Below, in pieces: positions 13,154-59,803 of a DNA stretch of 64,000 bases; positions within the stretch are counted from its first letter, which is position 1, and every line of letters starts with the position of its first letter. The notes under the pieces are model-generated. The model did not search any database, was not told where the DNA came from, and saw only the letters and a list, made by a program, of their open reading frames with translations. Source of the stretch: Escherichia coli (lineage in GTDB: Bacteria > Pseudomonadota > Gammaproteobacteria > Enterobacterales > Enterobacteriaceae); assembly GCF_013122565.1 (NCBI RefSeq), contig NZ_CP053258.1. One strand, written 5' to 3'. The position numbers and the translations under genes were made by a program.

Positions 13154-16100
13154 TTATTCCGGGCGCGGCTTCAGCGGGAAGCGGCGGCGCACCAGCACAA
13201 AGAACAGCGGCACGAAGTAAATAGCCAGAATAGTAGCCGAAATCATCCCGCCCATTACGCCAGTACCCACCGCATGCTGACCACCGGAACCGGCACCCGT
13301 GCTGGTTGCCATTGGCAATACGCCGAAGATAAATGCCAGCGAGGTCATCAGAATCGGGCGTAAACGCTGACGGCAGGCGTGGAGCGTCGCTTCAAACAGG
13401 TCGTGGCCTTTTTGGTTCATCTCGTTAGCAAACTCGACGATCAGGATGGCGTTTTTCGCCGATAAACCAATGACCGTTAACAGGCCCACCTGGAAGTAAA
13501 CGTCGTTTTCCAGCCCGCGCATCCAGGTTGCCAGCAGCGCGCCGATAACCCCCAGCGGCACGACCAACATTACCGAGAACGGCACCGACCAGCTTTCATA
13601 CAATGCCGCCAGACACAGGAATACCACCAGCAAGGAAATGGCGTACAGCGCCGGAGCCTGCGCGCCGGAAAGCCGCTCCTGATACGACATCGCCGTCCAC
13701 TCCAGACCAAAGCCGTTTGGCAACTGCTTCACTAACGATTCCATAATATCCATCGCCGTACCGGTACTGACCCCCGGTGCGGCTTCCCCAACAATCTCAA
13801 CCGCAGAATAACCGTTATAGCGTTCCAGACGCGGCGAGCCTGTCTCCCAGCGTGAGGTCGCGAAAGCAGAGAAGGGCACCATGCCGCCATCTTTATTTCG
13901 GACATACCAGAGATTGATGTCATCTGGCAGCATGCGATACGGCGCAGCTGCCTGCACATAGACTTTCTTCACGCGACCGCGATCCATAAAGTCATTCACA
14001 TAGCTCGAACCCCAGGCGGTTTGCAGTGTGTCGTTAATATCGTCGATAGCAACGCCCAGCGCCTGAGCTTTACGCTGGTCGATATCAATCTGCAACTGCG
14101 GACTGTCGTCGAGGCCGTTATGGCGCACACGGGTTAGCTCCGGGTTTTCCGCCGCCAGCGCCAGCAACTGGTTACGTGCTGCCATCAGCGCATCGTGACC
14201 TGCTCCAGCGTGGTCCTGCAACTCCATATCAAAACCTGCAGAACTACCAAGACCGCTAATTGCTGGCGGGCTGCTGGCGATAACGCGAGCTTCTTTAATT
14301 TGGTTAAACGCCTTTGTTGCACGCTCGATAATGGCAAACGAGGTGCCGGTCTTACTGTCGCGTTCGCTCCAGTCTTTCAGGCGGATAAACATTCGCGCCA
14401 CGTTTTGCCCGTTGCCCCCAGGGCCAGAGCCAACGGTGGCAAACACCGACATGATGTTGTCTTTTTCATGGGTGAAGTAATATTTCTCGATTTGCTCAAC
14501 GACTTTCAGGGTCTGTTGTTGGGTTGAACCGCTGGGCAATTGTACCGAGGTAGTAAACATGCCACGGTCTTCCAGCGGTAAGAACGACGTCGGCAAACGC
14601 AGGAACAGGAACACCATGCCGCCAAGCAGCAGGACATAAATCACAATCCAGCGCAGGCTACGGTGGAGAATTTTCGCCACCCCTTTTTCGTAGCGTTCGG
14701 CGTTGCGGTTAAACATCTGGTTAAACCAGGCAAAAAAGCCTTTTTGCCCGTGATGCTCACCTTTTTTCAGTGGCTTAAGTAGCGTGGCACACAGAGCCGG
14801 AGTGAGGATCATCGCTACCAGTACTGACAGCACCATCGCCGCAACAATGGTAATAGAGAACTGGCGATAGATGGCACCGGTGGTGCCGCCGAAGAAGGCC
14901 ATTGGTACAAATACCGCCGAAAGCACCATCGCAATCCCGACCAGTGCCCCCTGGATCTGCCCCATCGATTTACGTGTGGCTTCGCGAGGAGTGAGTCCTT
15001 CCTCACTCATAATACGTTCGACGTTTTCCACCACCACGATGGCATCATCCACCAGCAGACCGATCGCCAGCACCATCGCGAACATGGTTAAGGTGTTGAC
15101 GCTGTAACCGAAGGCGTAAAGTACGGAGAAGGTTCCCATCAACACCACCGGCACGGCGATAGTGGGTATCAGCGTGGCGCGGAAGTTTTGCAGGAACAGA
15201 TACATAACGAGGAAAACCAGAGCGATAGCTTCCAGCAGCGTTTTCACCACGTCTTCAATGGAGGCTTTAACAAACGAGGTGGTTTCATATGCCACCTTGT
15301 ATTCCAGTCCGTGCGGGAAATACTGCGCCAGCTCGTCGAGACGATTGAGCACCAGCTCCGCTGTCGCCATTTCGTTAGCGCCGGAGGCCAGTTTTACCCC
15401 CAGCCCGGAGGCTGGCTTACCATTGAAGCGGCTAAGATAATCGTATTTCTCCGCCCCCATTTCGACGGTGGCGACATCGCCCAGCCTTACCTCTGAGCCG
15501 TCCTGATTCACCCGCAAGGTGATATCGCGGAACTGTTCTGGTGTTTGCAGCAGTGACTGGGCGTTAATGGTGGCGTTGAGCGCCTGCTTATCGACGGAAG
15601 GTGTACCCCCAAGTTGTCCAACCGCAATCTGCGCGTTCTGTGACTCAATGGCATCAGTGACATCTTTAGCCGTCATCTGGAAACTGTTGAGTTTCGCCGG
15701 GTCCAGCCAGATACGCATGGAATATTGCGAACCATAGGCATCGATATCCCCGACGCCATTCACGCGGCTTAACGGGTCCTGAATATTACTGGCAACATAA
15801 TCAGCAATATCCTGTTTATCCATCGAACCATCGGTAGAGACGAAGGCAATGGTCAGAATGTTGGTATCGCCGGTTTTACGCACCGTCACGCCCTGATTTT
15901 GCACCGCCTGCGGTAACTTTCGCATGGCTGATTGCAGCTGGTTTTGTACTTGCTGCACGGCTTCGTCCGGATCGGTGCCTGCTTTAAAACTTAAAGTGAC
16001 AGATGCCTGACCGGTGCCACTGCTCTGAGATGACATATACATGAGATTATCGAGGCCGGTCATATTTTGCTCGATAACCTGGGTCACGGTGTTTTCCAGC

Positions 16101-16267
16101 GTCTGGGCCGATGCGCCGGGATAGTTAGCGGTCACTCGCACATTCGGTGGCGCGAGATCGGGGTATTGTTCAACGGGCAATGAAAAAATCGCCAGGGTAC
16201 CTGTCAGACACAACAGGATTGCCAGCACCCAGGCAAAAATGGGGCGATCAATAAAGAAATTCGCCAT
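13154..16267 (-). CDS. acrD: RND-family aminoglycoside/multidrug efflux pump AcrD
   Basis: 1037 aa, [21 protein letters not shown], 12-TM RND transporter architecture. Confidence 0.96.
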
Positions 16268-16337
16268 TAAAAGAGGACCTCGTGTTTCTGCGTATCGTTG
16301 TAGGCTTGACTTGCTTCACTGTAGCGGCAAGGTACGA

Positions 16338-28055: not shown

Positions 28056-28391
28056 ATGGATAAAGAACGCATCATTCAGGAATTTGTGCCCGGCAAACAG
28101 GTCACACTGGCGCATCTCATCGCGCATCCCGGCGAGGAACTGGCGAAGAAAATCGGCGTTCCGGATGCTGGCGCAATCGGCATTATGACGTTAACTCCTG
28201 GCGAAACGGCGATGATCGCCGGTGATTTAGCACTGAAAGCCGCCGATGTGCATATCGGTTTTCTCGACCGTTTTAGCGGCGCGCTGGTGATTTATGGCTC
28301 GGTGGGTGCAGTAGAAGAAGCGTTATCACAAACCGTCAGTGGTTTAGGTCGCTTATTAAATTATACGCTTTGTGAAATGACCAAAAGTTAA
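28056..28391 (+). CDS. eutS: ethanolamine-utilisation microcompartment shell protein EutS (permuted BMC domain)
   Basis: 111 aa from [26 protein letters not shown]. Confidence 0.9.
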
Positions 28392-28403: not shown

Positions 28404-28883
28404 ATGAAACGAATTGCGTTTGTGGGTACCGTCGGGGCAGGGAAAACAACGTTATTTAATGCGTTGCAGGGGAATTATACCCTCGCCAGAAAAACACAGG
28501 CCGTGGAATTTAATGATAAGGGCGATATTGATACGCCGGGTGAATATTTTAGCCATCCCCGCTGGTATCACGCCTTAATTACCACGCTACAGGATGTGGA
28601 CATGCTGATCTATGTCCACGGCGCGAATGACCCGGAAAGTCGGTTGCCTGCCGGGTTGCTGGATATTGGCGTCAGCAAACGGCAAATCGCCGTCATCAGT
28701 AAAACGGACATGCCAGATGCTGACGTCGCCGCAACGCGAAAGTTATTGCTTGAGACGGGCTTCGAAGAGCCGATTTTCGAGCTAAACAGCCACGACCCGC
28801 AAAGCGTGCAGCAACTGGTGGATTATCTGGCATCTCTCACCAAACAGGAGGAAGCAGGTGAAAAAACTCATCACAGCGAATGA
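28404..28883 (+). CDS. eutP: ethanolamine-utilisation protein EutP (P-loop GTPase-like acetate kinase)
   Basis: 159 aa, MKRIAFVGTVGAGKTTLFNAL Walker A. Confidence 0.92.
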   Translation: MKRIAFVGTVGAGKTTLFNALQGNYTLARKTQAVEFNDKGDIDTPGEYFSHPRWYHALITTLQDVDMLIYVHGANDPESRLPAGLLDIGVSKRQIAVISKTDMPDADVAATRKLLLETGFEEPIFELNSHDPQSVQQLVDYLASLTKQEEAGEKTHHSE

Positions 28884-29547
28884 TATTCGTGAAGCACACG
28901 CGCGTGGCGAACAGGCAATGTCCGTGGTTCTGCGCGCCAGCATTATTACCCCGGAAGCCCGTGAAGTGGCGGACCTGCTGGGTTTTACCATCACTGAATG
29001 CGAGGAATCGACACCAGCAACGGTATCTGTGCCCGTAGAGAAAACCGAAAGCCAGCGCATCCGCGAAACCATCATTGCCCAGCTGCCGGAAGGCCAGTTT
29101 ACCGAAAGCCTGGTCGCGCAGTTGATGGAAAAAGTGATGAAGGAAAAACAGTCGCTGGAGCAGGGTGCAATGCAGCCGAGCTTTAAATCGGTGACCGGCA
29201 AAGGCGGCATCAAAGTTATTGATGGTAGCAGCGTCAAGTTTGGTCGCTTTGATGGCGCACAACCGCATTGCGTGGGCTTGACTGATCTTGTGACCGGAGA
29301 CGACGGCAGCAGCATGGCCGCCGGTTTTATGCAGTGGGACAACGCCTTCTTCCCGTGGACCCTGAACTACGACGAAATCGACATGGTGCTGGAAGGGGAG
29401 CTGCATGTTCGCCACGAAGGCGAAACCATGATCGCCAAAGCAGGCGACGTGATGTTTATCCCGAAAGGCTCCAGCATCGAATTTGGTACGACATCCAGCG
29501 TGAAATTCCTGTATGTCGCCTGGCCGGCTAACTGGCAATCCCTATGA
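28858..29547 (+). CDS. eutQ: ethanolamine-utilisation protein EutQ (cupin-type acetate kinase)
   Basis: 229 aa, MKKLITANDIREAHARGEQAMSVVL; overlaps eutP by 26 nt. Confidence 0.9.
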   Translation: MKKLITANDIREAHARGEQAMSVVLRASIITPEAREVADLLGFTITECEESTPATVSVPVEKTESQRIRETIIAQLPEGQFTESLVAQLMEKVMKEKQSLEQGAMQPSFKSVTGKGGIKVIDGSSVKFGRFDGAQPHCVGLTDLVTGDDGSSMAAGFMQWDNAFFPWTLNYDEIDMVLEGELHVRHEGETMIAKAGDVMFIPKGSSIEFGTTSSVKFLYVAWPANWQSL

Positions 29548-30347
29548 AAGATTTCATCACCGAAGCATGGCTAAGAGCGAACCATACGCTCAGCGAAGGC
29601 GCAGAGATCCATCTCCCTGCGGACAGTCGCCTGACGCCCTCTGCCCGGGAGTTGCTGGAAAGCCGCCATCTGCGCATCAAGTTTATTGACGAGCAGGGCC
29701 GCCTGTTTGTTGACGATGAACAGCAGCAGCCGCAGCCCGTTCATGGGCTGACCAGTAGCGATGAACATCCGCAGGCGTGCTGCGAACTGTGCCGCCAGCC
29801 GGTGGCAAAAAAGCCGGATACGCTGACTCACCTGTCGGCGGAAAAAATGGTCGCCAAAAGCGATCCGCGCCTGGGTTTTCGCGCGGTTCTCGACAGCACC
29901 ATTGCGCTGGCAGTGTGGCTGCAAATTGAACTGGCAGAACCGTGGCAGCCATGGCTGGCGGACATCCGCTCGCGTCTTGGCAACATTATGCGTGCCGATG
30001 CGCTGGGGGAACCGTTGGGCTGCCAGGCGATTGTCGGGCTTTCTGACGAAGATCTGCATCGGCTTTCTCACCAGCCGCTGCGCTATCTCGACCACGATCA
30101 TCTGGTGCCGGAAGCCAGCCACGGGCGCGATGCTGCGTTGCTGAATCTGCTACGCACCAAAGTGCGGGAAACCGAAACCGTAGCGGCGCAGGTGTTTATC
30201 ACCCGCAGCTTTGAAGTATTACGCCCGGACATCTTGCAGGCGCTGAACCGCCTTTCGAGCACGGTCTACGTGATGATGATCCTGAGCGTAACGAAGCAGC
30301 CGCTAACGGTGAAGCAGATCCAACAACGACTGGGGGAAACGCAATGA
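29544..30347 (+). CDS. eutT: ethanolamine-utilisation cobalamin adenosyltransferase EutT
   Basis: 267 aa, [32 protein letters not shown]; ATGA overlap with eutQ. Confidence 0.92.
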
Positions 30348-31360
30348 TTATTGAACGTTGTCGTGAACTGGCGTTGCGAGCGCCCGCCAGAGTGGTTTTT
30401 CCGGATGCGTTAGATCAACGTGTGCTGAAAGCTGCGCAATATTTACATCAACAAGGTCTGGCAACGCCCATTCTGGTCGCTAATCCGTTTGAACTTCGTC
30501 AGTTTGCGCTCAGTCATGGCGTAGCGATGGACGGGCTACAGGTGATTGATCCGCATGGCAACCTCGCAATGCGGGAAGAATTTGCTCATCGCTGGCTGGC
30601 CCGCGCGGGCGAAAAAACGCCGCCGGATGCGCTGGAAAAACTTACCGATCCGCTGATGTTCGCCGCCGCAATGGTCAGCGCCGGTAAAGCGGATGTCTGT
30701 ATCGCGGGCAATCTCTCTTCCACGGCGAATGTGCTGCGTGCCGGATTACGCATTATTGGCTTGCAGCCAGGCTGTAAAACGCTCTCATCCATTTTCCTGA
30801 TGCTGCCACAGTACAGCGGTCCGGCGTTGGGTTTTGCCGATTGCAGCGTGGTGCCACAGCCGACGGCGGCACAACTGGCGGATATCGCGCTTGCCAGCGC
30901 CGAAACCTGGCAGGCCATCACCGGAGAAGAACCGCGCGTGGCGATGCTGTCGTTTTCCAGCAATGGTAGCGCCCGTCACCCCTGCGTTGCCAACGTCCAG
31001 CAGGCGACAGAAATCGTCCGTGAGCGCGCACCAAAGCTGGTTGTCGATGGCGAGTTGCAGTTTGACGCCGCCTTCGTGCCGGAAGTGGCGGCGCAAAAAG
31101 CGCCTGCCAGCCCGCTACAAGGCAAAGCCAATGTGATGGTTTTTCCGTCGCTGGAGGCAGGAAATATTGGCTACAAAATCGCACAACGACTCGGCGGATA
31201 TCGTGCCGTCGGGCCATTGATACAAGGGCTTGCCGCGCCGATGCACGATCTCTCTCGTGGTTGTAGCGTGCAGGAAATTATCGAGCTGGCGCTGGTGGCA
31301 GCTGTGCCGCGTCAGACAGAAGTGAACCGCGAAAGCAGTTTACAAACACTGGTTGAATGA
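30344..31360 (+). CDS. eutD: phosphotransacetylase EutD (EutI)
   Basis: 338 aa, [34 protein letters not shown]. Confidence 0.93.
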
Positions 31361-31398: not shown

Positions 31399-31692
31399 AT
31401 GGAAGCATTAGGAATGATCGAAACCCGGGGCCTGGTTGCACTGATTGAGGCTTCTGACGCGATGGTGAAAGCTGCGCGCGTCAAGCTGGTTGGTGTTAAG
31501 CAGATTGGCGGCGGCCTGTGTACTGCCATGGTTCGTGGTGATGTTGCAGCCTGTAAAGCAGCGACCGATGCCGGTGCCGCAGCGGCACAGCGTATCGGCG
31601 AGCTGGTATCTGTACACGTTATCCCGCGTCCGCACGGCGACCTGGAAGAAGTGTTCCCGATCGGCCTGAAAGGCGATAGCAGCAACCTGTAA
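31399..31692 (+). CDS. eutM: microcompartment major shell protein EutM (BMC-H)
   Basis: 97 aa from [28 protein letters not shown]. Confidence 0.93.
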
Positions 31693-31798: not shown

Positions 31799-32086
31799 AT
31801 GAAACTGGCAGTCGTCACTGGACAAATTGTTTGTACCGTACGCCATCACGGACTGGCGCATGACAAATTGCTGATGGTGGAAATGATTGATCCACAAGGT
31901 AATCCTGACGGGCAATGCGCCGTCGCCATCGACAATATTGGCGCGGGAACCGGGGAGTGGGTGTTGCTGGTGAGTGGCAGTTCTGCCCGCCAGGCGCATA
32001 AAAGCGAAACGTCACCGGTCGATCTGTGCGTGATTGGCATCGTCGATGAGGTGGTGTCTGGCGGTCAGGTAATTTTCCACAAATAA
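31799..32086 (+). CDS. eutN: microcompartment vertex protein EutN (BMC-P)
   Basis: 95 aa, MKLAVVTGQIVCTVRHHGL. Confidence 0.92.
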   Translation: MKLAVVTGQIVCTVRHHGLAHDKLLMVEMIDPQGNPDGQCAVAIDNIGAGTGEWVLLVSGSSARQAHKSETSPVDLCVIGIVDEVVSGGQVIFHK

Positions 32087-32097: not shown

Positions 32098-33501
32098 ATG
32101 AATCAACAGGATATTGAACAGGTGGTGAAAGCGGTACTGCTGAAAATGCAAAGCAGTGACACGCCGCCCGCCGCCGTTCATGAGATGGGCGTTTTCGCGT
32201 CCCTGGATGACGCCGTTGCGGCAGCCAAAATTGCCCAGCAAGGGTTAAAGAGCGTGGCAATGCGCCAGTTAGCCATTGCTGCCATTCGTGAAGCAGGCGA
32301 AAAACACGCCAGAGATTTAGCGGAACTTGCCGTCAGTGAAACCGGTATGGGCCGCGTTGAAGATAAATTTGCCAAAAACGTCGCTCAGGCGCGCGGCACG
32401 CCAGGCGTTGAGTGCCTCTCTCCGCAGGTGCTGACCGGTGACAACGGCCTGACTTTAATTGAAAACGCGCCCTGGGGCGTGGTGGCTTCGGTAACGCCGT
32501 CCACAAACCCGGCGGCAACCGTAATTAACAACGCCATCAGCCTGATTGCCGCGGGCAACAGCGTCATTTTTGCCCCGCATCCGGCGGCGAAAAAAGTCTC
32601 CCAGCGGGCGATCACGCTGCTCAACCAGGCGATTGTTGTCGCAGGCGGGCCGGAAAACTTACTGGTTACTGTGGCAAATCCGGATATCGAAACCGCGCAA
32701 CGTTTGTTCAAGTTTCCGGGCATCGGCCTTCTGGTGGTGACCGGCGGCGAAGCGGTAGTCGAAGCGGCGCGTAAACACACCAATAAACGTCTGATTGCCG
32801 CAGGCGCTGGCAACCCGCCGGTAGTGGTGGATGAAACCGCTGACCTCGCCCGTGCTGCTCAGTCCATCGTCAAAGGCGCGTCTTTCGATAACAACATCAT
32901 TTGTGCCGACGAAAAGGTACTGATTGTTGTTGATAGCGTAGCCGATGAACTGATGCGTCTGATGGAAGGCCAGCACGCGGTGAAACTGACCGCCGAGCAG
33001 GCGCAGCAGCTGCAACCGGTGTTGCTGAAAAATATCGACGAGCGCGGAAAAGGTACCGTCAGCCGTGACTGGGTTGGTCGCGATGCGGCGAAAATCGCGG
33101 CGGCAATCGGCCTGAACGTGCCGCAAGAAACGCGTTTGCTGTTTGTGGAAACCACCGCAGAACATCCGTTTGCTGTGACTGAACTGATGATGCCGGTGCT
33201 GCCCGTCGTGCGCGTCGCCAACGTGGCGGATGCCATTGCGCTGGCGGTGAAACTGGAGGGCGGTTGCCACCACACGGCGGCAATGCACTCGCGCAACATC
33301 GAAAACATGAACCAGATGGCGAACGCCATTGATACCAGCATTTTCGTTAAGAACGGACCGTGCATTGCCGGGCTGGGGCTGGGCGGGGAAGGCTGGACCA
33401 CCATGACCATCACCACGCCAACCGGTGAAGGGGTAACCAGCGCGCGGACGTTTGTCCGTCTGCGTCGCTGTGTATTAGTCGATGCGTTTCGCATTGTTTA
33501 A
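32098..33501 (+). CDS. eutE: CoA-acylating acetaldehyde dehydrogenase EutE
   Basis: 467 aa, MNQQDIEQVVKAVLLKMQSSDTPPAAVHEMGVF. Confidence 0.95.
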   Translation: MNQQDIEQVVKAVLLKMQSSDTPPAAVHEMGVFASLDDAVAAAKIAQQGLKSVAMRQLAIAAIREAGEKHARDLAELAVSETGMGRVEDKFAKNVAQARGTPGVECLSPQVLTGDNGLTLIENAPWGVVASVTPSTNPAATVINNAISLIAAGNSVIFAPHPAAKKVSQRAITLLNQAIVVAGGPENLLVTVANPDIETAQRLFKFPGIGLLVVTGGEAVVEAARKHTNKRLIAAGAGNPPVVVDETADLARAAQSIVKGASFDNNIICADEKVLIVVDSVADELMRLMEGQHAVKLTAEQAQQLQPVLLKNIDERGKGTVSRDWVGRDAAKIAAAIGLNVPQETRLLFVETTAEHPFAVTELMMPVLPVVRVANVADAIALAVKLEGGCHHTAAMHSRNIENMNQMANAIDTSIFVKNGPCIAGLGLGGEGWTTMTITTPTGEGVTSARTFVRLRRCVLVDAFRIV

Positions 33502-33511: not shown

Positions 33512-34348
33512 ATGGCGCATGACGAACAATGGCTCACCCCACGTCTGCACATAGCGGCAACGCTGTGTAACCAGACGCCCGCCGCGACGGAATCCCCGCT
33601 GTGGCTGGGGGTGGATCTGGGCACCTGCGATGTGGTGTCGATGGTTGTCGACCACGACGGTCAGCCGGTGGCGGTATGCCTCGACTGGGCCGATGTGGTC
33701 CGCGACGGCATCGTCTGGGATTTCTTCGGTGCGGTCACCATTGTTCGTCGCCATCTCGACACCCTTGAGCAGCAATTCGGTCGCCGTTTTAGCCATGCGG
33801 CGACTTCATTTCCTCCGGGTACGGACCCGCGTATTTCCATCAACGTGCTGGAATCAGCCGGACTGGAAGTGAGCCATGTGCTGGATGAGCCAACCGCAGT
33901 CGCGGATCTGCTGCAACTGGATAACGCCGGTGTAGTGGATATCGGCGGCGGCACCACCGGCATTGCCATCGTGAAAAAGGGCAAGGTGACGTACTCGGCG
34001 GATGAAGCCACTGGCGGACATCACATCTCTCTGACTCTCGCCGGAAATCGTCGTATTTCGCTGGAAGAGGCGGAGCAGTACAAGCGCGGTCATGGTGAAG
34101 AGATTTGGCCCGCGGTGAAACCGGTGTACGAAAAAATGGCGGACATTGTCGCCCGGCATATTGAAGGGCAGGGCATTACTGATTTATGGCTGGCGGGCGG
34201 CTCCTGTATGCAACCGGGCGTGGCGGAACTGTTTAGCAAACAATTCCCGGCATTACAGGTGCATTTACCGCAGCACAGTTTGTTTATGACCCCGCTGGCG
34301 ATCGCCAGTAGTGGGCGAGAGAAAGCGGAGGGGATCTATGCAAAATGA
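33512..34348 (+). CDS. eutJ: ethanolamine-utilisation chaperone-like protein EutJ (actin/Hsp70 fold)
   Basis: 278 aa, MAHDEQWLTPRLHIAATLCNQ. Confidence 0.93.
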   Translation: MAHDEQWLTPRLHIAATLCNQTPAATESPLWLGVDLGTCDVVSMVVDHDGQPVAVCLDWADVVRDGIVWDFFGAVTIVRRHLDTLEQQFGRRFSHAATSFPPGTDPRISINVLESAGLEVSHVLDEPTAVADLLQLDNAGVVDIGGGTTGIAIVKKGKVTYSADEATGGHHISLTLAGNRRISLEEAEQYKRGHGEEIWPAVKPVYEKMADIVARHIEGQGITDLWLAGGSCMQPGVAELFSKQFPALQVHLPQHSLFMTPLAIASSGREKAEGIYAK

Positions 34349-35525
34349 ATTGCAGACCGCGCTCTTTCAGGCGTTCGATACCCTGAATCTGCAACGGGTA
34401 AAAACATTTAGCGTTCCACCGATGACGCTTTGCGGTCCGGGCGCGGTGAGCAGTTGTGGGCAGCAAGCGCAAACGCGTGGGCTGAAACATCTGTTCGTGA
34501 TGGCAGACAGCTTTTTGCATCAGGCGGGGATGACCGCCGGGCTGACGCGCAGCCTGGCCGTTAAAGGTATCGCCATGACGCTCTGGCCATGTCCGGTGGG
34601 CGAACCATGCATCACCGACGTATGTGCAGCCGTGGCGCAGCTGCGTGAATCAGGCTGTGACGGGGTGATCGCGTTTGGCGGCGGCTCGGTGCTGGATGCG
34701 GCGAAAGCCGTGGCGTTGCTGGTGACGAACCCCGATAGCACGCTGGCGGAAATGTCAGAAACCAGCGTTCTGCAACCGCGCCTGCCGTTGATTGCCATTC
34801 CAACGACCGCCGGAACCGGCTCTGAAACCACCAACGTAACGGTGATTATCGACGCGGTGAGCGAGCGCAAGCAGGTGTTAGCCCATGCCTCGCTGATGCC
34901 GGATGTGGCGATCCTCGACGCCGCATTGACCGAAGGTGTGCCGTCGCATGTCACGGCGATGACCGGTATCGACGCGTTAACTCATGCCATTGAAGCGTAC
35001 AGCGCGCTGAACGCCACACCGTTTACCGACAGTCTGGCGATTGGCGCTATTGCGATGATTGGCAAATCGCTGCCGAAAGCGGTGGGCTACGGTCACGACC
35101 TTGCCGCGCGCGAGAGCATGTTGCTGGCTTCATGTATGGCGGGAATGGCGTTTTCCAGTGCGGGGCTTGGGGTATGCCACGCGATGGCGCATCAGCCGGG
35201 GGCGGCGCTGCATATTCCGCACGGTCTGGCGAACGCCATGCTACTGCCAACGGTGATGGAGTTTAACCGGATGGTCTGTCGCGAACGCTTTAGTCAGATT
35301 GGTCGGGCACTGCGAACTAAAAAATCCGACGATCGTGACGCTATTAACGCGGTAAGTGAGTTGATTGCGGAGGTCGGGATCAACAAGCGGCTGGCAGACG
35401 TGGGCGCAACCACCGGACATTACGGCGCATGGGCGCAGGCCGCGCTGGAAGATATTTGTCTGCGCAGCAACCCGCGTACCGCCAGCCTGGAACAGATTGT
35501 CGGCCTGTACGCAGCGGCGCAATAA
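34338..35525 (+). CDS. eutG: iron-containing alcohol dehydrogenase EutG
   Basis: 395 aa from MQNELQTALFQAFDTLNLQRVKTF; overlaps eutJ 3' end. Confidence 0.9.
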   Translation: MQNELQTALFQAFDTLNLQRVKTFSVPPMTLCGPGAVSSCGQQAQTRGLKHLFVMADSFLHQAGMTAGLTRSLAVKGIAMTLWPCPVGEPCITDVCAAVAQLRESGCDGVIAFGGGSVLDAAKAVALLVTNPDSTLAEMSETSVLQPRLPLIAIPTTAGTGSETTNVTVIIDAVSERKQVLAHASLMPDVAILDAALTEGVPSHVTAMTGIDALTHAIEAYSALNATPFTDSLAIGAIAMIGKSLPKAVGYGHDLAARESMLLASCMAGMAFSSAGLGVCHAMAHQPGAALHIPHGLANAMLLPTVMEFNRMVCRERFSQIGRALRTKKSDDRDAINAVSELIAEVGINKRLADVGATTGHYGAWAQAALEDICLRSNPRTASLEQIVGLYAAAQ

Positions 35526-35641: not shown

Positions 35642-36868
35642 ATGGGAATTAACGAAATCATCATGTACATCATGATGTTCTTTATGCTGATAGCTGCCGT
35701 AGACAGGATCCTGTCGCAGTTCGGCGGTTCTGCTCGTTTCCTCGGTAAGTTCGGTAAAAGTATCGAAGGATCAGGCGGTCAGTTCGAAGAAGGCTTTATG
35801 GCAATGGGCGCTCTGGGTCTGGCGATGGTCGGTATGACCGCGCTGGCACCGGTACTGGCTCACGTACTCGGGCCGGTAATTATCCCGGTTTACGAAATGC
35901 TCGGCGCAAACCCGTCAATGTTCGCCGGAACGCTGCTGGCGTGCGATATGGGCGGCTTCTTCCTCGCCAAAGAGCTGGCGGGCGGCGACGTAGCAGCGTG
36001 GCTATACTCTGGGTTAATTCTCGGGTCGATGATGGGGCCAACGATTGTGTTTTCCATTCCGGTGGCGCTCGGCATTATCGAACCTTCTGACCGTCGTTAT
36101 CTGGCGCTCGGCGTGCTGGCGGGCATTGTGACCATTCCGATTGGTTGTATCGCTGGTGGTCTGGTAGCTATGTACTCCGGTGTTCAGATCAACGGCCAGC
36201 CGGTGGAATTCACTTTCGCCCTGATCCTGATGAACATGATCCCGGTGATCATTGTTGCGATTCTGGTGGCGCTGGGGCTGAAATTCATCCCGGAAAAAAT
36301 GATCAACGGCTTCCAGATCTTCGCCAAATTCCTCGTTGCATTGATCACCCTCGGTCTTGCCGCTGCGGTAGTGAAATTCCTGCTTGGCTGGGAACTGATC
36401 CCCGGTCTGGATCCTATCTTTATGGCCCCTGGCGATAAACCCGGTGAGGTGATGCGCGCCATTGAAGTTATCGGTTCTATCTCCTGCGTGCTGTTAGGGG
36501 CGTATCCGATGGTGCTGCTGCTGACCCGTTGGTTTGAAAAACCGCTGATGAGCGTCGGTAAAGTGCTGAATATGAACAACATCGCGGCAGCCGGCATGGT
36601 GGCAACGCTTGCCAACAACATCCCGATGTTCGGCATGATGAAGCAGATGGATACCCGCGGCAAAGTCATCAACTGCGCCTTCGCCGTTTCCGCTGCTTTC
36701 GCCCTGGGCGACCACTTAGGCTTCGCCGCTGCCAACATGAACGCCATGATTTTCCCGATGATTGTCGGCAAGTTGATCGGCGGCGTAACGGCGATTGGCG
36801 TGGCGATGATGCTGGTGCCAAAAGAAGACGCGACCGCGGCTAAAACCGAAGCGGAGGCACAATCGTGA
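35642..36868 (+). CDS. eutH: ethanolamine permease EutH
   Basis: 408 aa, MGINEIIMYIMMFFMLIAAVDRIL, polytopic membrane protein. Confidence 0.95.
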   Translation: MGINEIIMYIMMFFMLIAAVDRILSQFGGSARFLGKFGKSIEGSGGQFEEGFMAMGALGLAMVGMTALAPVLAHVLGPVIIPVYEMLGANPSMFAGTLLACDMGGFFLAKELAGGDVAAWLYSGLILGSMMGPTIVFSIPVALGIIEPSDRRYLALGVLAGIVTIPIGCIAGGLVAMYSGVQINGQPVEFTFALILMNMIPVIIVAILVALGLKFIPEKMINGFQIFAKFLVALITLGLAAAVVKFLLGWELIPGLDPIFMAPGDKPGEVMRAIEVIGSISCVLLGAYPMVLLLTRWFEKPLMSVGKVLNMNNIAAAGMVATLANNIPMFGMMKQMDTRGKVINCAFAVSAAFALGDHLGFAAANMNAMIFPMIVGKLIGGVTAIGVAMMLVPKEDATAAKTEAEAQS

Positions 36869-38268
36869 ACACTCGCCAGCTACTGAGCGTCGGTATCGAT
36901 ATCGGCACTACCACCACCCAGGTGATCTTCTCCCACCTGGAGCTGGTTAACCGTGCGGCGGTGTCGCAGGTGCCGCGCTACGAATTCATCAAACGCGAAA
37001 TTAGCTGGCAAAGCCCGGTGTTCTTTACCCCTGTCGATAAACAGGGTGGTTTAAAAGAAGCGGAACTGAAAACCTTAATCCTCGAGCAATATCAGGCTGC
37101 GGGCATTGCGCCGGAAAGCGTTGATTCTGGTGCCATCATCATCACCGGTGAAAGCGCGAAAACCCGCAATGCTCGCCCGGCGGTGATGGCGCTCTCCCGG
37201 TCGCTGGGCGATTTTGTCGTCGCCAGCGCCGGGCCGCATCTCGAATCCGTGATCGCCGGTCACGGTGCCGGGGCGCAAACCCTTTCTGAACAACGGCTGT
37301 GTCGGGTCCTGAATATCGATATCGGCGGTGGCACCGCGAACTACGCCCTGTTCGATGCCGGAAAAATCAGCGGTACTGCCTGCCTCAACGTCGGCGGTCG
37401 CCTGCTGGAAACCGACAGCCAGGGGCGCGTGGTTTACGCTCATAAACCGGGGCAGATGATTGTGGATGAGTGCTTCGGCGCAGGCACCGACGCCCGTTCG
37501 CTGACCGGCGCGCAGCTGGTGCAGGTTACCCGGCGGATGGCAGAGCTGATTGTCGAAGTGATTGACGGAACGCTTTCGCCGCTCGCGCAGGCATTAATGC
37601 AAACCGGTTTGCTGCCCGCAGGTGTTACGCCCGAAATCATTACGCTTTCTGGCGGCGTGGGCGAATGTTATCGCCACCAGCCCGCCGACCCGTTCTGTTT
37701 TGCCGATATTGGCCCGCTGCTGGCAACGGCGCTGCATGACCATCCGCGCCTGCGTGAGATGAACGTGCAGTTTCCGGCGCAAACCGTGCGTGCCACGGTG
37801 ATTGGCGCGGGGGCACATACCCTTTCGCTCTCTGGCAGCACAATCTGGCTTGAGGGCGTACAACTGCCGCTGCGCAATTTGCCGGTGGCGATCCCGATTG
37901 ATGAAACGGATCTGGTGGGTGCCTGGCAACAGGCGCTGATTCAGCTGGATCTTGATCCCAAAACTGACGCGTACGTGCTGGCGCTTCCCGCCTCGCTGCC
38001 TGTGCGTTACGCCGCGGTACTGACGGTCATCAACGCGTTGGTCGATTTCGTCGCGCGTTTTCCGAATCCGCATCCCCTGCTGGTGGTGGCCGGGCAGGAC
38101 TTTGGTAAAGCTCTGGGCATGTTGTTGCGCCCACAGCTACAACAACTCCCGTTGGCAGTCATTGACGAAGTGATTGTCCGCGCGGGGGACTATATCGACA
38201 TTGGTACGCCTCTTTTTGGCGGATCGGTTGTGCCGGTGACGGTGAAATCACTCGCATTTCCTTCCTGA
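36865..38268 (+). CDS. eutA: ethanolamine ammonia-lyase reactivating factor EutA
   Basis: 467 aa, MNTRQLLSVGIDIGTTTTQVIFSHLEL. Confidence 0.95.
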   Translation: MNTRQLLSVGIDIGTTTTQVIFSHLELVNRAAVSQVPRYEFIKREISWQSPVFFTPVDKQGGLKEAELKTLILEQYQAAGIAPESVDSGAIIITGESAKTRNARPAVMALSRSLGDFVVASAGPHLESVIAGHGAGAQTLSEQRLCRVLNIDIGGGTANYALFDAGKISGTACLNVGGRLLETDSQGRVVYAHKPGQMIVDECFGAGTDARSLTGAQLVQVTRRMAELIVEVIDGTLSPLAQALMQTGLLPAGVTPEIITLSGGVGECYRHQPADPFCFADIGPLLATALHDHPRLREMNVQFPAQTVRATVIGAGAHTLSLSGSTIWLEGVQLPLRNLPVAIPIDETDLVGAWQQALIQLDLDPKTDAYVLALPASLPVRYAAVLTVINALVDFVARFPNPHPLLVVAGQDFGKALGMLLRPQLQQLPLAVIDEVIVRAGDYIDIGTPLFGGSVVPVTVKSLAFPS

Positions 38269-38279
38269 GGGAACGACTT

Positions 38280-39641
38280 ATGAAACTAAAGACCACATTG
38301 TTCGGCAATGTATATCAGTTTAAGGATGTAAAAGAGGTGCTGGCTAAAGCCAACGAACTGCGTTCGGGGGATGTGCTGGCGGGCGTCGCAGCGGCAAGCT
38401 CACAGGAGCGCGTGGCGGCAAAGCAGGTGTTGTCGGAAATGACCGTAGCGGACATCCGCAATAATCCGGTGATTGCCTATGAAGATGACTGCGTGACGCG
38501 GCTGATTCAGGACGATGTTAACGAAACGGCCTACAACCAGATTAAAAACTGGAGCATCAGCGAACTGCGTGAGTATGTGCTGAGCGATGAAACCAGCGTG
38601 GACGACATTGCCTTTACCCGCAAAGGGCTGACCTCGGAAGTGGTCGCGGCGGTAGCGAAGATTTGCTCCAACGCGGACCTGATTTACGGCGCGAAGAAAA
38701 TGCCGGTAATCAAAAAGGCCAATACCACCATCGGTATTCCGGGCACCTTCAGCGCCCGTTTGCAGCCAAATGACACCCGTGACGACGTGCAAAGTATCGC
38801 CGCGCAAATCTACGAAGGGCTTTCCTTCGGGGTGGGCGATGCGGTGATCGGCGTTAACCCGGTGACTGACGACGTGGAAAACTTAAGCCGCGTGCTGGAC
38901 ACCATCTATGGCGTGATCGACAAATTCAACATCCCAACTCAGGGCTGCGTACTGGCGCACGTCACCACCCAGATCGAAGCGATTCGTCGCGGCGCGCCTG
39001 GCGGACTGATTTTCCAGAGTATCTGTGGCAGCGAAAAAGGGCTGAAAGAGTTTGGCGTGGAACTGGCGATGCTCGACGAAGCGCGCGCAGTGGGTGCAGA
39101 GTTCAACCGTATCGCCGGGGAAAACTGCCTCTACTTCGAAACCGGACAAGGTTCAGCGCTATCCGCTGGCGCTAACTTCGGCGCAGACCAGGTGACGATG
39201 GAAGCACGTAACTATGGGCTGGCGCGTCATTACGATCCGTTTATCGTCAACACCGTGGTCGGCTTTATTGGGCCGGAGTATCTCTACAACGACCGCCAGA
39301 TTATCCGTGCGGGCTTAGAAGATCACTTTATGGGCAAGCTGAGCGGCATCTCTATGGGCTGTGACTGCTGTTACACCAACCACGCTGACGCTGACCAGAA
39401 CCTCAACGAAAACCTGATGATCCTGCTCGCCACCGCAGGCTGCAACTACATCATGGGGATGCCGCTGGGTGATGACATCATGCTCAACTACCAGACCACC
39501 GCATTCCACGATACCGCCACTGTGCGTCAGTTACTCAACCTGCGCCCGTCACCGGAGTTTGAACGCTGGCTGGAAAGCATGGGCATTATGGCAAACGGTC
39601 GCCTGACCAAACGGGCGGGCGATCCGTCACTGTTCTTCTGA
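38280..39641 (+). CDS. eutB: ethanolamine ammonia-lyase large subunit EutB
   Basis: 453 aa, MKLKTTLFGNVYQFKDVKEVLAKANELRSGD; directly follows eutA. Confidence 0.96.
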   Translation: MKLKTTLFGNVYQFKDVKEVLAKANELRSGDVLAGVAAASSQERVAAKQVLSEMTVADIRNNPVIAYEDDCVTRLIQDDVNETAYNQIKNWSISELREYVLSDETSVDDIAFTRKGLTSEVVAAVAKICSNADLIYGAKKMPVIKKANTTIGIPGTFSARLQPNDTRDDVQSIAAQIYEGLSFGVGDAVIGVNPVTDDVENLSRVLDTIYGVIDKFNIPTQGCVLAHVTTQIEAIRRGAPGGLIFQSICGSEKGLKEFGVELAMLDEARAVGAEFNRIAGENCLYFETGQGSALSAGANFGADQVTMEARNYGLARHYDPFIVNTVVGFIGPEYLYNDRQIIRAGLEDHFMGKLSGISMGCDCCYTNHADADQNLNENLMILLATAGCNYIMGMPLGDDIMLNYQTTAFHDTATVRQLLNLRPSPEFERWLESMGIMANGRLTKRAGDPSLFF

Positions 39642-39661: not shown

Positions 39662-40549
39662 ATGGATCAAAAACAGATTGAAGAAATTGTACGCAGCGTG
39701 ATGGCGTCAATGGGACAAGCGGCCCCCGCGCCGTCAGAAGCAAAGTGCGCCACTACCACCTGTGCGGCACCGGTGACCTCGGAAAGCTGCGCGCTGGATT
39801 TAGGTTCTGCGGAAGCAAAAGCGTGGATTGGTGTTGAAAACCCGCATCGCGCAGACGTATTAACAGAACTGCGCCGCAGCACCGTGGCCCGCGTTTGTAC
39901 CGGTCGTGCCGGTCCGCGTCCGCGTACCCAGGCGTTGCTGCGTTTCCTGGCCGATCACTCTCGTTCGAAAGATACCGTACTTAAAGAAGTGCCGGAAGAG
40001 TGGGTGAAAGCGCAGGGCTTGCTGGAAGTCCGCTCCGAAATTAGCGACAAAAATCTCTACCTGACTCGCCCGGATATGGGCCGCCGCCTGTGTGCAGAAG
40101 CTGTTGAAGCGCTGAAAGCACAGTGTGTTGCTAATCCGGACGTACAGGTCGTTATTTCTGATGGCCTGTCAACTGATGCCATCACCGTGAACTACGAAGA
40201 GATCCTGCCGCCGCTGATGGCGGGCCTGAAACAGGCCGGGCTGAAAGTCGGTACACCATTCTTTGTTCGTTATGGTCGCGTGAAGATTGAAGATCAGATC
40301 GGTGAGATCCTCGGCGCGAAAGTAGTGATCCTGCTGGTGGGCGAACGTCCGGGGTTGGGTCAGTCAGAAAGCCTCTCCTGCTACGCCGTTTACTCGCCGC
40401 GTATGGCGACCACCGTTGAGGCCGATCGCACCTGTATCTCTAACATTCACCAGGGCGGCACGCCGCCGGTTGAAGCCGCAGCCGTCATTGTGGATTTGGC
40501 GAAACGTATGCTGGAGCAGAAAGCATCCGGCATCAACATGACCCGATAA
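39662..40549 (+). CDS. eutC: ethanolamine ammonia-lyase small subunit EutC
   Basis: 295 aa, [24 protein letters not shown]. Confidence 0.95.
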
Positions 40550-40558: not shown

Positions 40559-41218
40559 ATGCCAGCTTTAGATTTGATTCGACCGTCTGTCACCGCTATG
40601 CGGGTGATTGCCTCCGTTAACGCCGATTTTGCGCGTGAACTGAAATTGCCGCCGCATATTCGTAGCCTCGGTCTGATTTCTGCTGATTCCGATGACGTCA
40701 CCTACATTGCCGCTGATGAAGCGACCAAGCAGGCGATGGTGGAAGTGGTGTATGGCCGCTCGCTGTATGCGGGCGCTGCACACGGCCCGTCACCGACTGC
40801 CGGTGAAGTGCTGATTATGCTTGGTGGGCCAAACCCGGCGGAAGTGCGTGCAGGTCTGGATGCGATGGTTGCGCATATTGAAAATGGCGCTGCTTTCCAG
40901 TGGGCTAATGATGCGCAAGATACGGCATTCCTGGCACATGTGGTTTCGCGTACCGGTTCTTATCTTTCATCAACCGCCGGGATCACGCTTGGCGATCCGA
41001 TGGCGTATCTGGTGGCACCGCCGCTGGAAGCGACCTACGGCATTGATGCAGCGTTGAAATCTGCCGACGTACAGCTGGTGACCTATGTCCCGCCACCGTC
41101 TGAAACTAACTACTCGGCAGCATTTTTAACCGGTAGCCAGGCAGCGTGTAAAGCGGCCTGTAACGCCTTTACCGATGCAGTGCTGGAAATCGCGCGTAAT
41201 CCAATCCAGCGTGCGTAA
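40559..41218 (+). CDS. eutL: microcompartment shell protein EutL (tandem BMC domain, trimer)
   Basis: 219 aa, [31 protein letters not shown]. Confidence 0.95.
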
Positions 41219-41230: not shown

Positions 41231-41731
41231 ATGATCAATGCACTGGGATTGCTGGAAGTGGACGGCATGGTCGCTGCGATAGATGCAGCGGATGCCATGC
41301 TCAAAGCAGCTAACGTTCGTCTGCTCAGTCACGAAGTGCTTGACCCTGGTCGCTTAACGCTGGTGGTGGAAGGCGATCTGGCGGCGTGTCGTGCTGCGCT
41401 GGACGCAGGTTGTGCTGCCGCGATGCGTACCGGGCGTGTCATCAGCCGCAAGGAGATCGGTCGGCCAGACGATGACACCCAGTGGCTGGTTACTGGCTTT
41501 AACCGCCAGCCGAAGCAACCCGTAAAGGAACCCGACGCGCCAGTTATCGTCGCGGAATCTGCTGACGAGTTGTTGGCGCTGTTAACATCAGTACGTCAGG
41601 GAATGACGGCAGGAGAAGTGGCTGCCCACTTTGGCTGGCCGCTGGAAAAAGCCAGAAATGCGCTCGAACAGCTCTTTTCTGCAGGGACGTTACGTAAACG
41701 CAGTAGTCGTTATCGTCTCAAGCCCCATTAA
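41231..41731 (+). CDS. eutK: microcompartment shell protein EutK (BMC domain plus C-terminal nucleic-acid-binding-like domain)
   Basis: 166 aa from MINALGLLEVDGMVAAIDAADAMLKAANV. Confidence 0.9.
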   Translation: MINALGLLEVDGMVAAIDAADAMLKAANVRLLSHEVLDPGRLTLVVEGDLAACRAALDAGCAAAMRTGRVISRKEIGRPDDDTQWLVTGFNRQPKQPVKEPDAPVIVAESADELLALLTSVRQGMTAGEVAAHFGWPLEKARNALEQLFSAGTLRKRSSRYRLKPH

Positions 41732-41776: not shown

Positions 41777-42829
41777 ATGAAAAAGACCCGTACAGCCAAT
41801 TTGCACCATCTTTATCATGAACCCTTACCCGAAAACCTGAAGCTCACGCCGAAGGTCGAAGTGGATAATGTTCATCAACGACAGACAACGGATGTCTATG
41901 AACATGCTTTAACGATTACCGCCTGGCAGCAGATTTACGATCAGCTGCATCCGGGCAAGTTTCATGGTGAATTTACGGAAATTCTACTCGATGATATTCA
42001 GGTTTTTCGTGAATACACCGGTCTGGCGCTGCGTCAGTCGTGCCTGGTCTGGCCGAACTCGTTCTGGTTTGGCATTCCGGCGACGCGCGGTGAGCAGGGA
42101 TTTATCGGTTCGCAATGTCTGGGAAGCGCAGAAATAGCGACGCGCCCCGGTGGCACTGAGTTTGAATTAAGTACGCCGGACGATTACACGATCCTGGGCG
42201 TAGTGCTTTCTGAAGATGTCATCACCCGTCAGGCTAACTTTTTGCATAATCCGGATCGGGTATTACATATGCTGCGTAGCCAGTCGGCGCTGGAAGTGAA
42301 AGAGCAGCATAAAGCCGCGCTGTGGGGCTTTGTCCAACAGGCGCTGGCGACGTTTTGCGAGAACCCGGAAAATCTCCATCAGCCTGCAGTGCGAAAAGTG
42401 CTGGGGGATAATTTGCTCATGGCGATGGGGGCGATGCTGGAAGAAGCGCAACCAATGGTGACGGCGGAAAGCATCAGTCATCAGAGTTACCGTAGATTAC
42501 TTTCCCGCGCCCGTGAATATGTGCTGGAAAACATGTCCGAACCGGTGACGGTGCTGGATTTGTGTAATCAACTGCATGTCAGCCGCCGCACGCTACAAAA
42601 CGCGTTTCACGCTATTTTAGGCATTGGCCCGAACGCGTGGCTGAAACGCATTCGCCTGAACGCCGTACGCCGCGAACTGATAAGCCCGTGGTCGCAAAGC
42701 ACAACGGTAAAAGACGCCGCCATGCAGTGGGGATTCTGGCATCTGGGGCAATTTGCCACGGATTACCAGCAGCTGTTTTCCGAGAAGCCGTCGTTGACGT
42801 TGCATCAGCGGATGCGGGAATGGGGGTGA
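41777..42829 (+). CDS. eutR: AraC-family transcriptional activator of the eut operon EutR
   Basis: 350 aa, [26 protein letters not shown]; C-terminal AraC HTH. Confidence 0.93.
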
Positions 42830-45682: not shown

Positions 45683-45703
45683 CGCAGAGGTGCGCTTTGT
45701 TTA

Positions 45704-45803
45704 TGCCGGATGCGGCGTGAACGCCTTATCCGGCCTACAAAACATCGAAAATTCAATATATTGCAGGAGAAAGTAGGCCTGATAAGCGTAGCGCATCAGG
45801 CAA
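45704..45803. repeat. REP/BIME element (two PUs with linker) after yfeZ
   Basis: GCCGGATGCGGCGTGAACGCCTTATCCGGCCTAC ... linker AATTCAATATATTGCAG ... GTAGGCCTGATAAGCGTAGCGCATCAGGC. Confidence 0.85.
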
Positions 45804-45888
45804 TTTTGTGTTTGTCATCAACCTTTAACGGCACTTTTTGGTGAATTTGAACTCCAAGCAACGTTATTGAATAACCAAAGGAAGTGAC

Positions 45889-47459: not shown

Positions 47460-47516
47460 GCGTTTCTGATTCGATGATGAAAGGCCAGGCAGTAACATTA
47501 CTGACTGGCCTTTTTA

Positions 47517-58277: not shown

Positions 58278-58371
58278 ACGCAAAACTGCCTGATGTGCCA
58301 CGCTTATCAGGCCTACAAGGTTTCTGCAATATATTGAATTAGCACGATTTTGTAGGCCGGATAAGGCGTTT
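58278..58371. repeat. BIME: intact PU plus left half of a second PU that is split by the IS
   Basis: TGCCTGATGTGCCACGCTTATCAGGCCTAC ... CTGCAATATATTGAATT ... GTAGGCCGGATAAGGCGTTT. Confidence 0.8.
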
Positions 58372-59277
<906 letters not shown>

Positions 59278-59778: not shown

Positions 59779-59803
59779 TGTCCAACATTTGGGGTGCAGT
59801 TCA
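59779..59803. repeat. IS terminal inverted repeat (orfA-proximal end)
   Basis: reverse complement TGAACTGCACCCCAAATGTTGGACA. Confidence 0.8.

Follow-up and report, generated by a model that had tools for sequence, protein, structure and literature searches.

An uninterrupted 17-gene eut operon with an unoccupied CPZ-55 integration site in Escherichia coli

Ethanolamine is a gut and urinary-tract nutrient tied to the competitive fitness of E. coli, and in K-12 the eut operon is split between eutA and eutB by the cryptic prophage CPZ-55. The locus studied here lies in a 64,000-nt window, the whole stretch of E. coli contig NZ_CP053258.1 that was analysed, and it raises the question of whether eutA and eutB are truly contiguous and whether the operon is in its ancestral and presumably functional arrangement, as an original prediction from the letters alone had proposed. 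We confirmed the contiguity without a prophage: eutA ends at 38268 and eutB starts at 38280, in exact agreement with the open reading frame (ORF) list, and neither that list nor the sequence places any integrase or phage gene in the 11-nt gap between them. The features of the junction are as follows.

36865 to 38268, + strand: eutA, ethanolamine ammonia-lyase reactivase, 467 aa, GTG start (ORF; NCBIfam equivalog NF007991, 1072 bits vs cut-off 799; 98.9% to K-12)
38261 to 38268, + strand: unoccupied attB core CTTCCTGA of the CPZ-55/IntZ element family, including the eutA stop codon TGA (K-12 junction comparison)
38269 to 38279, + strand: eutA-eutB spacer GGGAACGACTT, 11 nt (sequence; identical in 35/35 species loci)
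38280 to 39641, + strand: eutB, ethanolamine ammonia-lyase large subunit, 453 aa, ATG start (ORF; NCBIfam NF011649, 665 bits vs cut-off 554; 100% aa to K-12)

By local megablast against 85 kb of K-12, the window is collinear with the reference, and positions 2511091-2517861 of the K-12 record (~6.8 kb) have no counterpart in it. This alignment had been put forward as the check on the prediction, and it finds inserted DNA at the junction in K-12 and none in the window. The K-12 HMS174 annotation reads eutA, a 126-nt hypothetical ORF, yffS-yffR-yffQ-yffP-yffO-yffN-yffM-yffL, intZ, eutB, with the ~6.8 kb insert (126-nt ORF, yffS to yffL, intZ) in opposite orientation between two core copies; annotation and junction comparison thus agree that CPZ-55 (intZ to yffS) separates the two genes there, as the prediction had stated. 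The window agrees with the left K-12 junction as far as 38268 and with the right one from 38261 onwards, and the shared CTTCCTGA flanks the elements of both K-12 and E. coli SLK172. The published 8-bp target duplication of CPZ-55, 5'-TCAGGAAG-3', reported together with a prevalence of 8% (PMC6379469), is the reverse complement of CTTCCTGA. In one respect the prediction was inexact: it denied any att site, yet the unoccupied core sits once at 38261-38268. As expected of an unoccupied attB, the conserved spacer and then the eutB ATG come directly after this single copy at the eutA stop, with no element genes; intZ, yffL-yffS and a duplicated core, which mark a CPZ-55-bearing locus, are found in K-12 and not in the window. 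The spacer and the preceding GA also hold GAGGGAA, which would serve as a Shine-Dalgarno-like sequence for eutB.

The remainder of the operon is likewise intact. In tblastn searches with the K-12 products, all 17 genes named in the prediction, eutSPQTDMNEJGHABCLKR, were recovered at full length and collinear between 28056 and 42829 on the + strand, in the order of an EUT1-type operon, each with a proper start and stop and with 94-100% amino acid identity. Overlooked frameshifts, which the prediction had named as a way in which it could fail, are absent, all 17 genes aligning end to end; the sole length difference from K-12 is 4 aa, in frame, in EutQ. The other 15 genes are as follows.

28056 to 28391, + strand: eutS, shell protein, 111 aa (100% to K-12, full length, ATG start, TAA stop)
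28404 to 28883, + strand: eutP, 159 aa (98.1% to K-12, full length)
28858 to 29547, + strand: eutQ, 229 aa against 233 aa in K-12 (94.4%; 4-aa in-frame deletion in a repetitive linker, K-12 ...TASVPASVP...)
29544 to 30347, + strand: eutT, corrinoid adenosyltransferase, 267 aa (100% to K-12)
30344 to 31360, + strand: eutD, phosphotransacetylase, 338 aa (99.7% to K-12)
31399 to 31692, + strand: eutM, shell protein, 97 aa (100% to K-12)
31799 to 32086, + strand: eutN, shell vertex protein, 95 aa (100% to K-12)
32098 to 33501, + strand: eutE, acetaldehyde dehydrogenase, 467 aa (98.9% to K-12; NCBIfam NF011927, 737 bits)
33512 to 34348, + strand: eutJ, 278 aa (98.2% to K-12; NCBIfam EutJ, 399 bits)
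34338 to 35525, + strand: eutG, alcohol dehydrogenase, 395 aa (97.5% to K-12; NCBIfam EutG, 881 bits)
35642 to 36868, + strand: eutH, ethanolamine permease, 408 aa (99.8% to K-12; NCBIfam EutH, 873 bits)
39662 to 40549, + strand: eutC, lyase small subunit, 295 aa (99.7% to K-12; NCBIfam EutC, 340 bits vs cut-off 230)
40559 to 41218, + strand: eutL, shell protein, 219 aa (99.1% to K-12)
41231 to 41731, + strand: eutK, shell protein, 166 aa (99.4% to K-12)
41777 to 42829, + strand: eutR, AraC-type activator and last gene, 350 aa (99.4% to K-12; NCBIfam equivalog, 789 bits vs cut-off 319)

In K-12 BW25113, eutB is not induced (PMC7617246) and ethanolamine cannot be used as a nitrogen source, and growth on it is regained after scarless removal of the prophage (PMC11334477). 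Without an insert, eutB, eutC, eutL, eutK and eutR would stay on the eutS-eutA transcript, which would be driven by an EutR-activated promoter upstream of eutS; the strain would therefore be expected to use ethanolamine in the presence of cobalamin. The operon is thus presumably functional, as originally worded, a reading consistent with the growth of prophage-cured BW25113 (PMC11334477), and ethanolamine results have been published for other E. coli with uninterrupted operons (PMC11334477, PMC7617246). It would nevertheless be possible for a contiguous operon to be inactive through a change invisible to ORF inspection, whether missense, regulatory or in a linker. The alleles do differ from K-12, with 10 substitutions in EutG, 5 each in EutA, EutE and EutJ, and 9 in EutQ besides its 4-residue deletion, and the lineage has no close relative among complete genomes (best match 97.6-98.8%), so that its alleles are less vouched for by tested strains. 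None of these changes appears obviously disabling, however, and the one in EutQ sits in a repetitive, variable linker. Given also that all 17 ORFs are full length at 94-100% identity, that EutB, EutT, EutS, EutM and EutN are 100% identical to the K-12 proteins, and that EutR and the promoter-proximal region are conserved (the region upstream of eutS is ~97% identical to K-12, without a large indel), we consider such a hidden defect improbable.

The contiguous junction is also the prevailing state of the species: of 5426 complete E. coli genomes, 4964 (91.5%) have it and only 394 have an intZ-eutB junction. All 35 representatives of other species, drawn from 9 genera and including Escherichia spp., Salmonella, Citrobacter, Klebsiella, Yokenella, Pluralibacter, Pseudocitrobacter and Intestinirhabdus, carry eutA, an 11-nt spacer and eutB, and four metagenomic operons that are more distant, as well as one S. 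enterica fragment, show eutA and then eutB with the same spacer length. Because most E. coli and all outgroups examined share it, the contiguous arrangement is ancestral, as the prediction had held. An IntZ-family element could still have occupied this particular site and been lost by precise excision, leaving the arrangement secondarily restored rather than continuously ancestral: precise excision is traceless, and an empty site alone fits a history of excision or removal as well as one in which it was never occupied. Such restored sites may exist, since NZ_CP107553.1 carries K-12 eut alleles (eutA and eutB 100% to HMS174) without CPZ-55 and with a scarless junction identical to that of the window, through either engineering or excision, and Jallet et al. 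found laboratory W3110 to be natively eut+ whereas BW25113 has the insert (PMC11334477). The window, however, is not K-12, with ~98% nucleotide identity and 5 residue differences in EutA, and with 91.5% of E. coli and every outgroup species empty, parsimony favours a site that was never occupied; we therefore regard past occupancy as a slim prospect. An assembly artefact, with an inserted element collapsed or dropped, has nothing specific in its favour beyond the generic possibility that attends any assembly, and is very improbable given that the junction is base for base the canonical empty site of thousands of genomes and 34 of the 35 other species and that collapse over an 8-bp repeat is untypical of assemblers.

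The best overall explanation, to which we assign a probability of about 0.93, is therefore a standard uninterrupted 17-gene eut operon with its CPZ-55 site unoccupied, from which ethanolamine use is expected. Gene content, junction sequence and phylogenetic distribution enter this reading as direct observations, whereas co-transcription and the growth phenotype are carried over from published work on other strains. A contiguous eut operon is the common, ancestral and documented state, so the original observation is correct but ordinary: earlier publications cover the CPZ-55 insertion with its 8-bp duplication, its prevalence of ~8%, the naming of the site as a 'hot spot', and both the loss and the restoration of ethanolamine use in BW25113. 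The finding itself matters little, as the uninterrupted operon is the usual wild type and K-12 the exception. K-12 is accordingly a poor reference for ethanolamine metabolism, and ethanolamine use predicted by gene-content models from K-12 annotation is misleading (PMC7617246).

Comparison of the junction across Enterobacteriaceae genera brought out a second feature, defined by its synonymous diversity.

38184 to 38380, + strand: block of near-frozen synonymous sites, ~197 nt

The block has sharp edges and takes in ~85 nt at the end of eutA, the spacer and ~100 nt at the start of eutB, with the attB core near its middle. Within it, synonymous codon diversity is 0.066, compared with 0.344 outside; 70% of degenerate codons are monomorphic inside vs 9% outside (20 species), and no permutation out of 20,000 matched the observed value. 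In the 12.7-kb profile, conservation over 90 nt also peaks in the block (0.996 vs a mean of 0.83, sd 0.05). Ascertainment bias was rejected as a cause, as the pattern used to find the species loci constrained nothing but the residues encoded by the first 56 nt of eutB, and the independently found S. enterica fragment shows the same block, with 2 differences in 193 nt vs 84.9% overall. In the more distant operons the block is still visible but weaker.

We considered several further causes. Six-frame stop-codon maps show every alternative frame to be interrupted somewhere in the block, which argues against an overlapping gene. A 32-aa antisense ORF (ATG at 38257 to a stop at 38161, with the Shine-Dalgarno-like GGAAGGAA) is open in most species, and it was rejected because its C-terminus is radically altered where the DNA varies (RGQSLRQ, PGQPPHR, TERSLRQ). 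Upstream of eutB its frame stays open for 114 nt, at -1 relative to eutA, and a programmed -1 frameshift to an EutA-EutB fusion was likewise set aside, as inspection found no canonical X XXY YYZ heptamer, only a T5 run. Homogenisation of the junction by elements with a long homologous attP, as at icd/e14, was also discarded: CPZ-55 and the SLK172 island share with the target the 8-bp core and a few scattered matches only. In the phage and plasmid records searched, the block was absent as an isolated attP and occurred only inside complete eutA-eutB, the single viral-contig match showing the end of eutA, the same 11-nt spacing and then a 453-aa ORF. Sites 38312 and 38345 within the block are saturated with substitutions, which points to old divergence plus constraint.

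Searches of the block for sigma-70 promoters gave no promoter-like sites, and terminator-like sites occur in it at chance level. An Rfam E-value search of 37800-38800 returned chance-level matches only (E >= 2.9), and an Rfam gathering search of the whole window gave nothing at the block. RNAalifold predicted hairpins there, one of them, at 38257-38273, pairing the eutB Shine-Dalgarno sequence. A stable fold drew no clear support, with a minimum free energy z-score of 0.01 vs shuffled controls and covariation measures that between 43 and 108 of 500 shuffles equalled among 14 diverse sequences, in which the key hairpin is invariant. A literature search for a described element at the eutA-eutB junction found nothing relevant.

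We tentatively suggest, at rather less than even odds, that the block may be an undescribed cis-acting element whose invariance makes it a portable, cross-genus target for IntZ-family integration. In the mRNA it might couple or gate translation of eutB, or it might act as an internal processing or start site, or as a platform to which a protein or sRNA binds. If so, the K-12 insertion would split this element besides parting eutB from its promoter. Such a coincidence of synonymous constraint with an integration hot spot could, if confirmed, matter more than the state of the operon, as it would mean that expression of the signature enzyme EutBC is controlled at a further, so far overlooked level, and would show in a specific case what leads a mobile element to a given intragenic target.

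The eutA-eutB site has been named a 'prophage insertion hot spot' (PMC6652756), and the same attB holds further integrative islands of the IntZ family, for example in E. coli SLK172 and UPEC U71. These have an identical core CTTCCTGA and ends homologous to those of CPZ-55, but their integrase has only ~84% DNA identity to K-12 intZ and they bring other cargo (gadC-, murI- and decarboxylase-like genes, IS1), none of which the window carries. A more distant parallel is e14, a tyrosine-integrase element at the 3' end of icd, a conserved metabolic gene whose reading frame is regenerated (PMC6379469). CPZ-55 likewise enters such a gene at its 3' end and leaves the frame intact; e14, however, brings a 163-bp replacement icd end, whereas CPZ-55 has only 8 bp in common with its target. 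The K-12 MG1655/BW25113 locus resembles the window in its flanking genes, in eutA and eutB (98.9% and 100% aa) and in the 8-bp core at the eutA stop, and differs in its ~6.8 kb insert and two cores, where the window has one core and no insert. The closest match is the EUT1-type operon of Salmonella enterica LT2 and most E. coli, which has the same genes in the same order, with eutA followed by eutB and eutR last; without any structural difference, the window departs from it in alleles only, including an EutQ linker that is 4 aa shorter.

eutA and eutB lie directly beside each other in the window, as read from its ORF list:

36865-38268, plus strand: eutA, GTG start, 467 aa
38280-39641, plus strand: eutB, ATG start, 453 aa

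These coordinates are exactly those of the original prediction, and the contiguity it described is confirmed by the ORF list, which has no integrase or phage-like ORF between the two genes, and by the 11-nt spacer that separates them, GGGAACGACTT. EutA, EutB, EutC, EutH, EutG, EutJ, EutE and EutR match their NCBIfam families, all above the curated cut-offs. Every one of the 17 Eut proteins of K-12 aligns over its full length with the window, in the order eutSPQTDMNEJGHABCLKR and at 94–100% identity, and each gene has proper start and stop codons. A check against the K-12 proteins for missed frameshifts found none in the 17 window genes, so that the operon is intact and ordered as claimed. EutQ (28858-29547) alone differs in length, with 229 aa vs 233 in K-12; it has lost four residues from a repetitive linker (K-12 ...TASVPASVP...) and is also the most divergent Eut protein of the window, with 94.4% identity and 9 substitutions relative to K-12. 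The 290 nt upstream of eutS are about 97% identical to K-12, and the proximal 150 nt are almost identical. We also observed that the eutB frame stays open for 114 nt 5′ of its ATG (38166-38279); it is −1 to the frame of eutA, lacks a canonical start in that stretch and has a T5 run around 38212-38216. Pfam domains of EutA and EutB occur together in two 792-aa proteins predicted from metagenomes (P0091 and P0094), and these may be assembly noise.

In the annotation of K-12 substr. HMS174, the order is eutH, eutA, a 126-nt hypothetical ORF, yffS-yffR-yffQ-yffP-yffO-yffN-yffM-yffL, intZ (a tyrosine recombinase) and eutB, with the genes of the inserted element oriented opposite to eut. When the whole window was compared with 85 kb of K-12 by local megablast, the two were collinear from hyfB to ptsI, and about 6.8 kb, at K-12 record positions 2511091-2517861, were without a counterpart in the window. 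Annotation and alignment thus agree that K-12 carries an insert between eutA and eutB, the cryptic prophage CPZ-55, that is absent here, so the refuting case named in the original prediction, an equally uninterrupted K-12 junction, does not hold. When the window junction was aligned with both K-12 junctions, the left one followed the window up to 38268 (...CTTCCTGA) and the right one followed it from 38261 on (CTTCCTGAGGG...), leaving the 8-bp core CTTCCTGA in one copy in the window and two in K-12. Because this core includes the eutA stop codon, EutA is still 467 aa in K-12. The original prediction of no att site therefore stands for attL and attR, which are absent, but not for attB, which is present and empty as the single 8-bp core (38261-38268).

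Three further differences from K-12 lie elsewhere in the window:

58372-59803, 1432 bp: IS1397 (IS3 family), cysM-yfeS intergenic region
45685-45825: small REP-like indel, yfeZ/yfeY
47482-47511: small REP-like indel, yfeX/pbp4b

The two transposase ORFs of the IS1397 copy overlap and are on the minus strand, and only 2 of 5,426 complete E. coli genomes carry it at this position. Adjoining it is the only Rfam gathering-level match of the window, ES036 (40.9 bits, 58309-58351). The REP-like piece of about 140 bp is similar, at 85–90% identity, to repeats found at other places in the K-12 region.

Scored as a single contiguous match to a 1.2-kb junction query, the uninterrupted junction was found in 4,964 of the 5,426 complete E. 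coli genomes (91.5%), whereas a K-12 query running from intZ through the start of eutB was covered by at least 80% in 394 (7.3%). These 394 appear to fall into two classes by identity band, one near-identical to K-12 and the other about 84% identical. The remaining ~1% of genomes include IS insertions and rearrangements, such as that of strain 102651. Two islands other than CPZ-55 that occupy attB, with intZ at about 84% DNA identity, are:

SLK172 (compared record L002), 1719-12032: attB-occupying island
102651 (compared record L003), 8426-16320: attB-occupying island

Cargo across these islands includes genes for a gadC-like antiporter and a murI-like racemase, decarboxylase pseudogenes and IS elements. 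The SLK172 element, with cargo (gadC-, murI- and decarboxylase-like genes, IS1) that differs from that of CPZ-55, has the same 8-bp core and ends homologous to those of CPZ-55, which makes the two members of a single element family with a single target site. The SLK172 annotation marks eutR as frameshifted; in 102651, IS903B additionally truncates eutA.

To polarize the two states, we searched a single genome of each species using a degenerate pattern that coded only the EutB N-terminus. All 35 outgroup loci (Citrobacter, Klebsiella, Salmonella arizonae, other Escherichia, Yokenella, Pluralibacter, Pseudocitrobacter and Intestinirhabdus) show the same order, in which the 3′ end of eutA is followed by an identical 11-nt spacer and eutB, and four farther metagenomic operons (EutA 77–80% identical) keep the same spacing. 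Since outgroups and distant operons are all contiguous, the arrangement was rightly called ancestral, and the insert, with its integrase and bounding target duplication, is on this comparison the derived state. An empty site is nevertheless no proof that it was never occupied, because NZ_CP107553.1, ‘MG1655_insertion’ (compared record L044, 6500-6600), has the K-12 eutA and eutB alleles but lacks CPZ-55, and its junction is scarless and matches that of the window exactly. K-12 sublines lacking CPZ-55 thus exist, through excision or engineering; a laboratory W3110 is natively eut+, according to Jallet et al. (PMC11334477). The window is not K-12 (nucleotide identity is about 98%), and in its case a site that was never occupied is the more parsimonious reading. 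The window has no close relative among the 5,426 complete genomes: the best identities of its large segments, 97.6% (27800-52700) and 98.8% (1-24000), are similar to the distance of the window from K-12, so that the lineage of the source strain is either mosaic or poorly represented there.

The junction itself proved unusually conserved. In a profile of 23 sequences (82–97% identical overall), a sharp-edged peak at about 38184-38380 marks a block of ~197 nt in which synonymous sites are nearly frozen across genera of Enterobacteriaceae. It runs from the 3′ end of eutA over the spacer into the 5′ end of eutB and is roughly centred on the attB core; invariant columns make up 87–97% of this block vs 30–70% elsewhere, and 34 of 35 species share the 23-nt string TTTCCTTCCTGAGGGAACGACTT without a difference. 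Measured codon by codon, synonymous diversity is 0.066 within the block vs 0.344 outside, 70% vs 9% of degenerate codons are monomorphic across 20 species, and none of 20,000 permutations matched the observed run. When 30 non-Escherichia loci were profiled over the 12.7 kb from eutE to amiA, the most conserved 90-nt stretch fell in the block (0.996 vs a mean of 0.83, s.d. 0.05), and the remaining gene junctions were raised only slightly. Farther operons, 75–78% identical outside, are 86–92% identical within it, and one distant operon is 100% identical over 38184-38279. The synonymous-site constraint is real. We rejected recent exchange, as positions 38312 and 38345 are saturated with substitutions, and an ascertainment artefact, as the eutA side was untouched by the search pattern and an independent S. 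enterica fragment shows 2 differences in 193 nt vs 84.9% identity overall. In three assemblies, C. koseri NCTC10786 (L038), C. amalonaticus (L024) and K. michiganensis DSM 25444 (L033), 1-base G-run indels in or beside the block throw eutA or eutB out of frame; these are likely homopolymer sequencing errors, the other reading being real pseudogenisation.

Our leading guess, held with low confidence, is that the block could be an mRNA-level element for eutB translation or processing. RNAalifold predicted a 74-nt hairpin within the eutA end and, at 38257-38273, a small hairpin (UUUCCUU-CCU-GAGGGAA) in which the eutB Shine-Dalgarno sequence would be paired, with the eutA stop across the loop-stem boundary and the attB core on the hairpin. 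Fold stability of the block is at the level of shuffled sequences (z = 0.01); covariation over 14 diverse sequences is not above shuffled controls, the small hairpin being invariant. The invariance of such an element would also account for an integrase family having settled here, on a target available across many genera. The block matched no Rfam family, no sigma-70-like promoter was found in it, and no phage or plasmid was found bearing it as attP. GenBank OR850921.1, ‘Salmonella phage S.Kent 1-2-1’ (L043), is a 4.9-kb UNVERIFIED_ORG record filed as phage; at least its first 3.9 kb are collinear with window eutA-eutB-eutC at 84.9% identity, and it is probably bacterial host DNA rather than phage sequence. 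An antisense 32-aa ORF evolves like a non-coding frame and was rejected. We offer the block as a lead, not as a result.

The gene arrangement is observed directly, whereas we infer co-transcription of eutBCLKR and the ethanolamine phenotype: without the opposite-oriented 6.8-kb insert, eutBCLKR would remain on the EutR-activated transcript starting upstream of eutS, and the lyase and late shell proteins would be made. The intact operon is a correct, ordinary and already known finding, and the functional effect of the insertion is likewise published. In BW25113, eutS and eutR respond to ethanolamine, eutB does not, and microcompartments are not formed (PMC7617246); with ethanolamine as nitrogen source this strain behaves like a delta-eut strain, and scarless prophage removal returns growth to the level of eut+ W3110 (PMC11334477). 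CPZ-55 has been placed directly past the eutA stop, with eutA and eutB unchanged and an 8-bp duplication published as TCAGGAAG, the reverse complement of the window core CTTCCTGA (PMC6379469). The site has been termed a prophage insertion hot spot, and a UPEC strain carries a novel prophage there (PMC6652756); the insert prevalence counted here, 7.3–8.5%, agrees with the published 8% among 638 genomes (PMC6379469).
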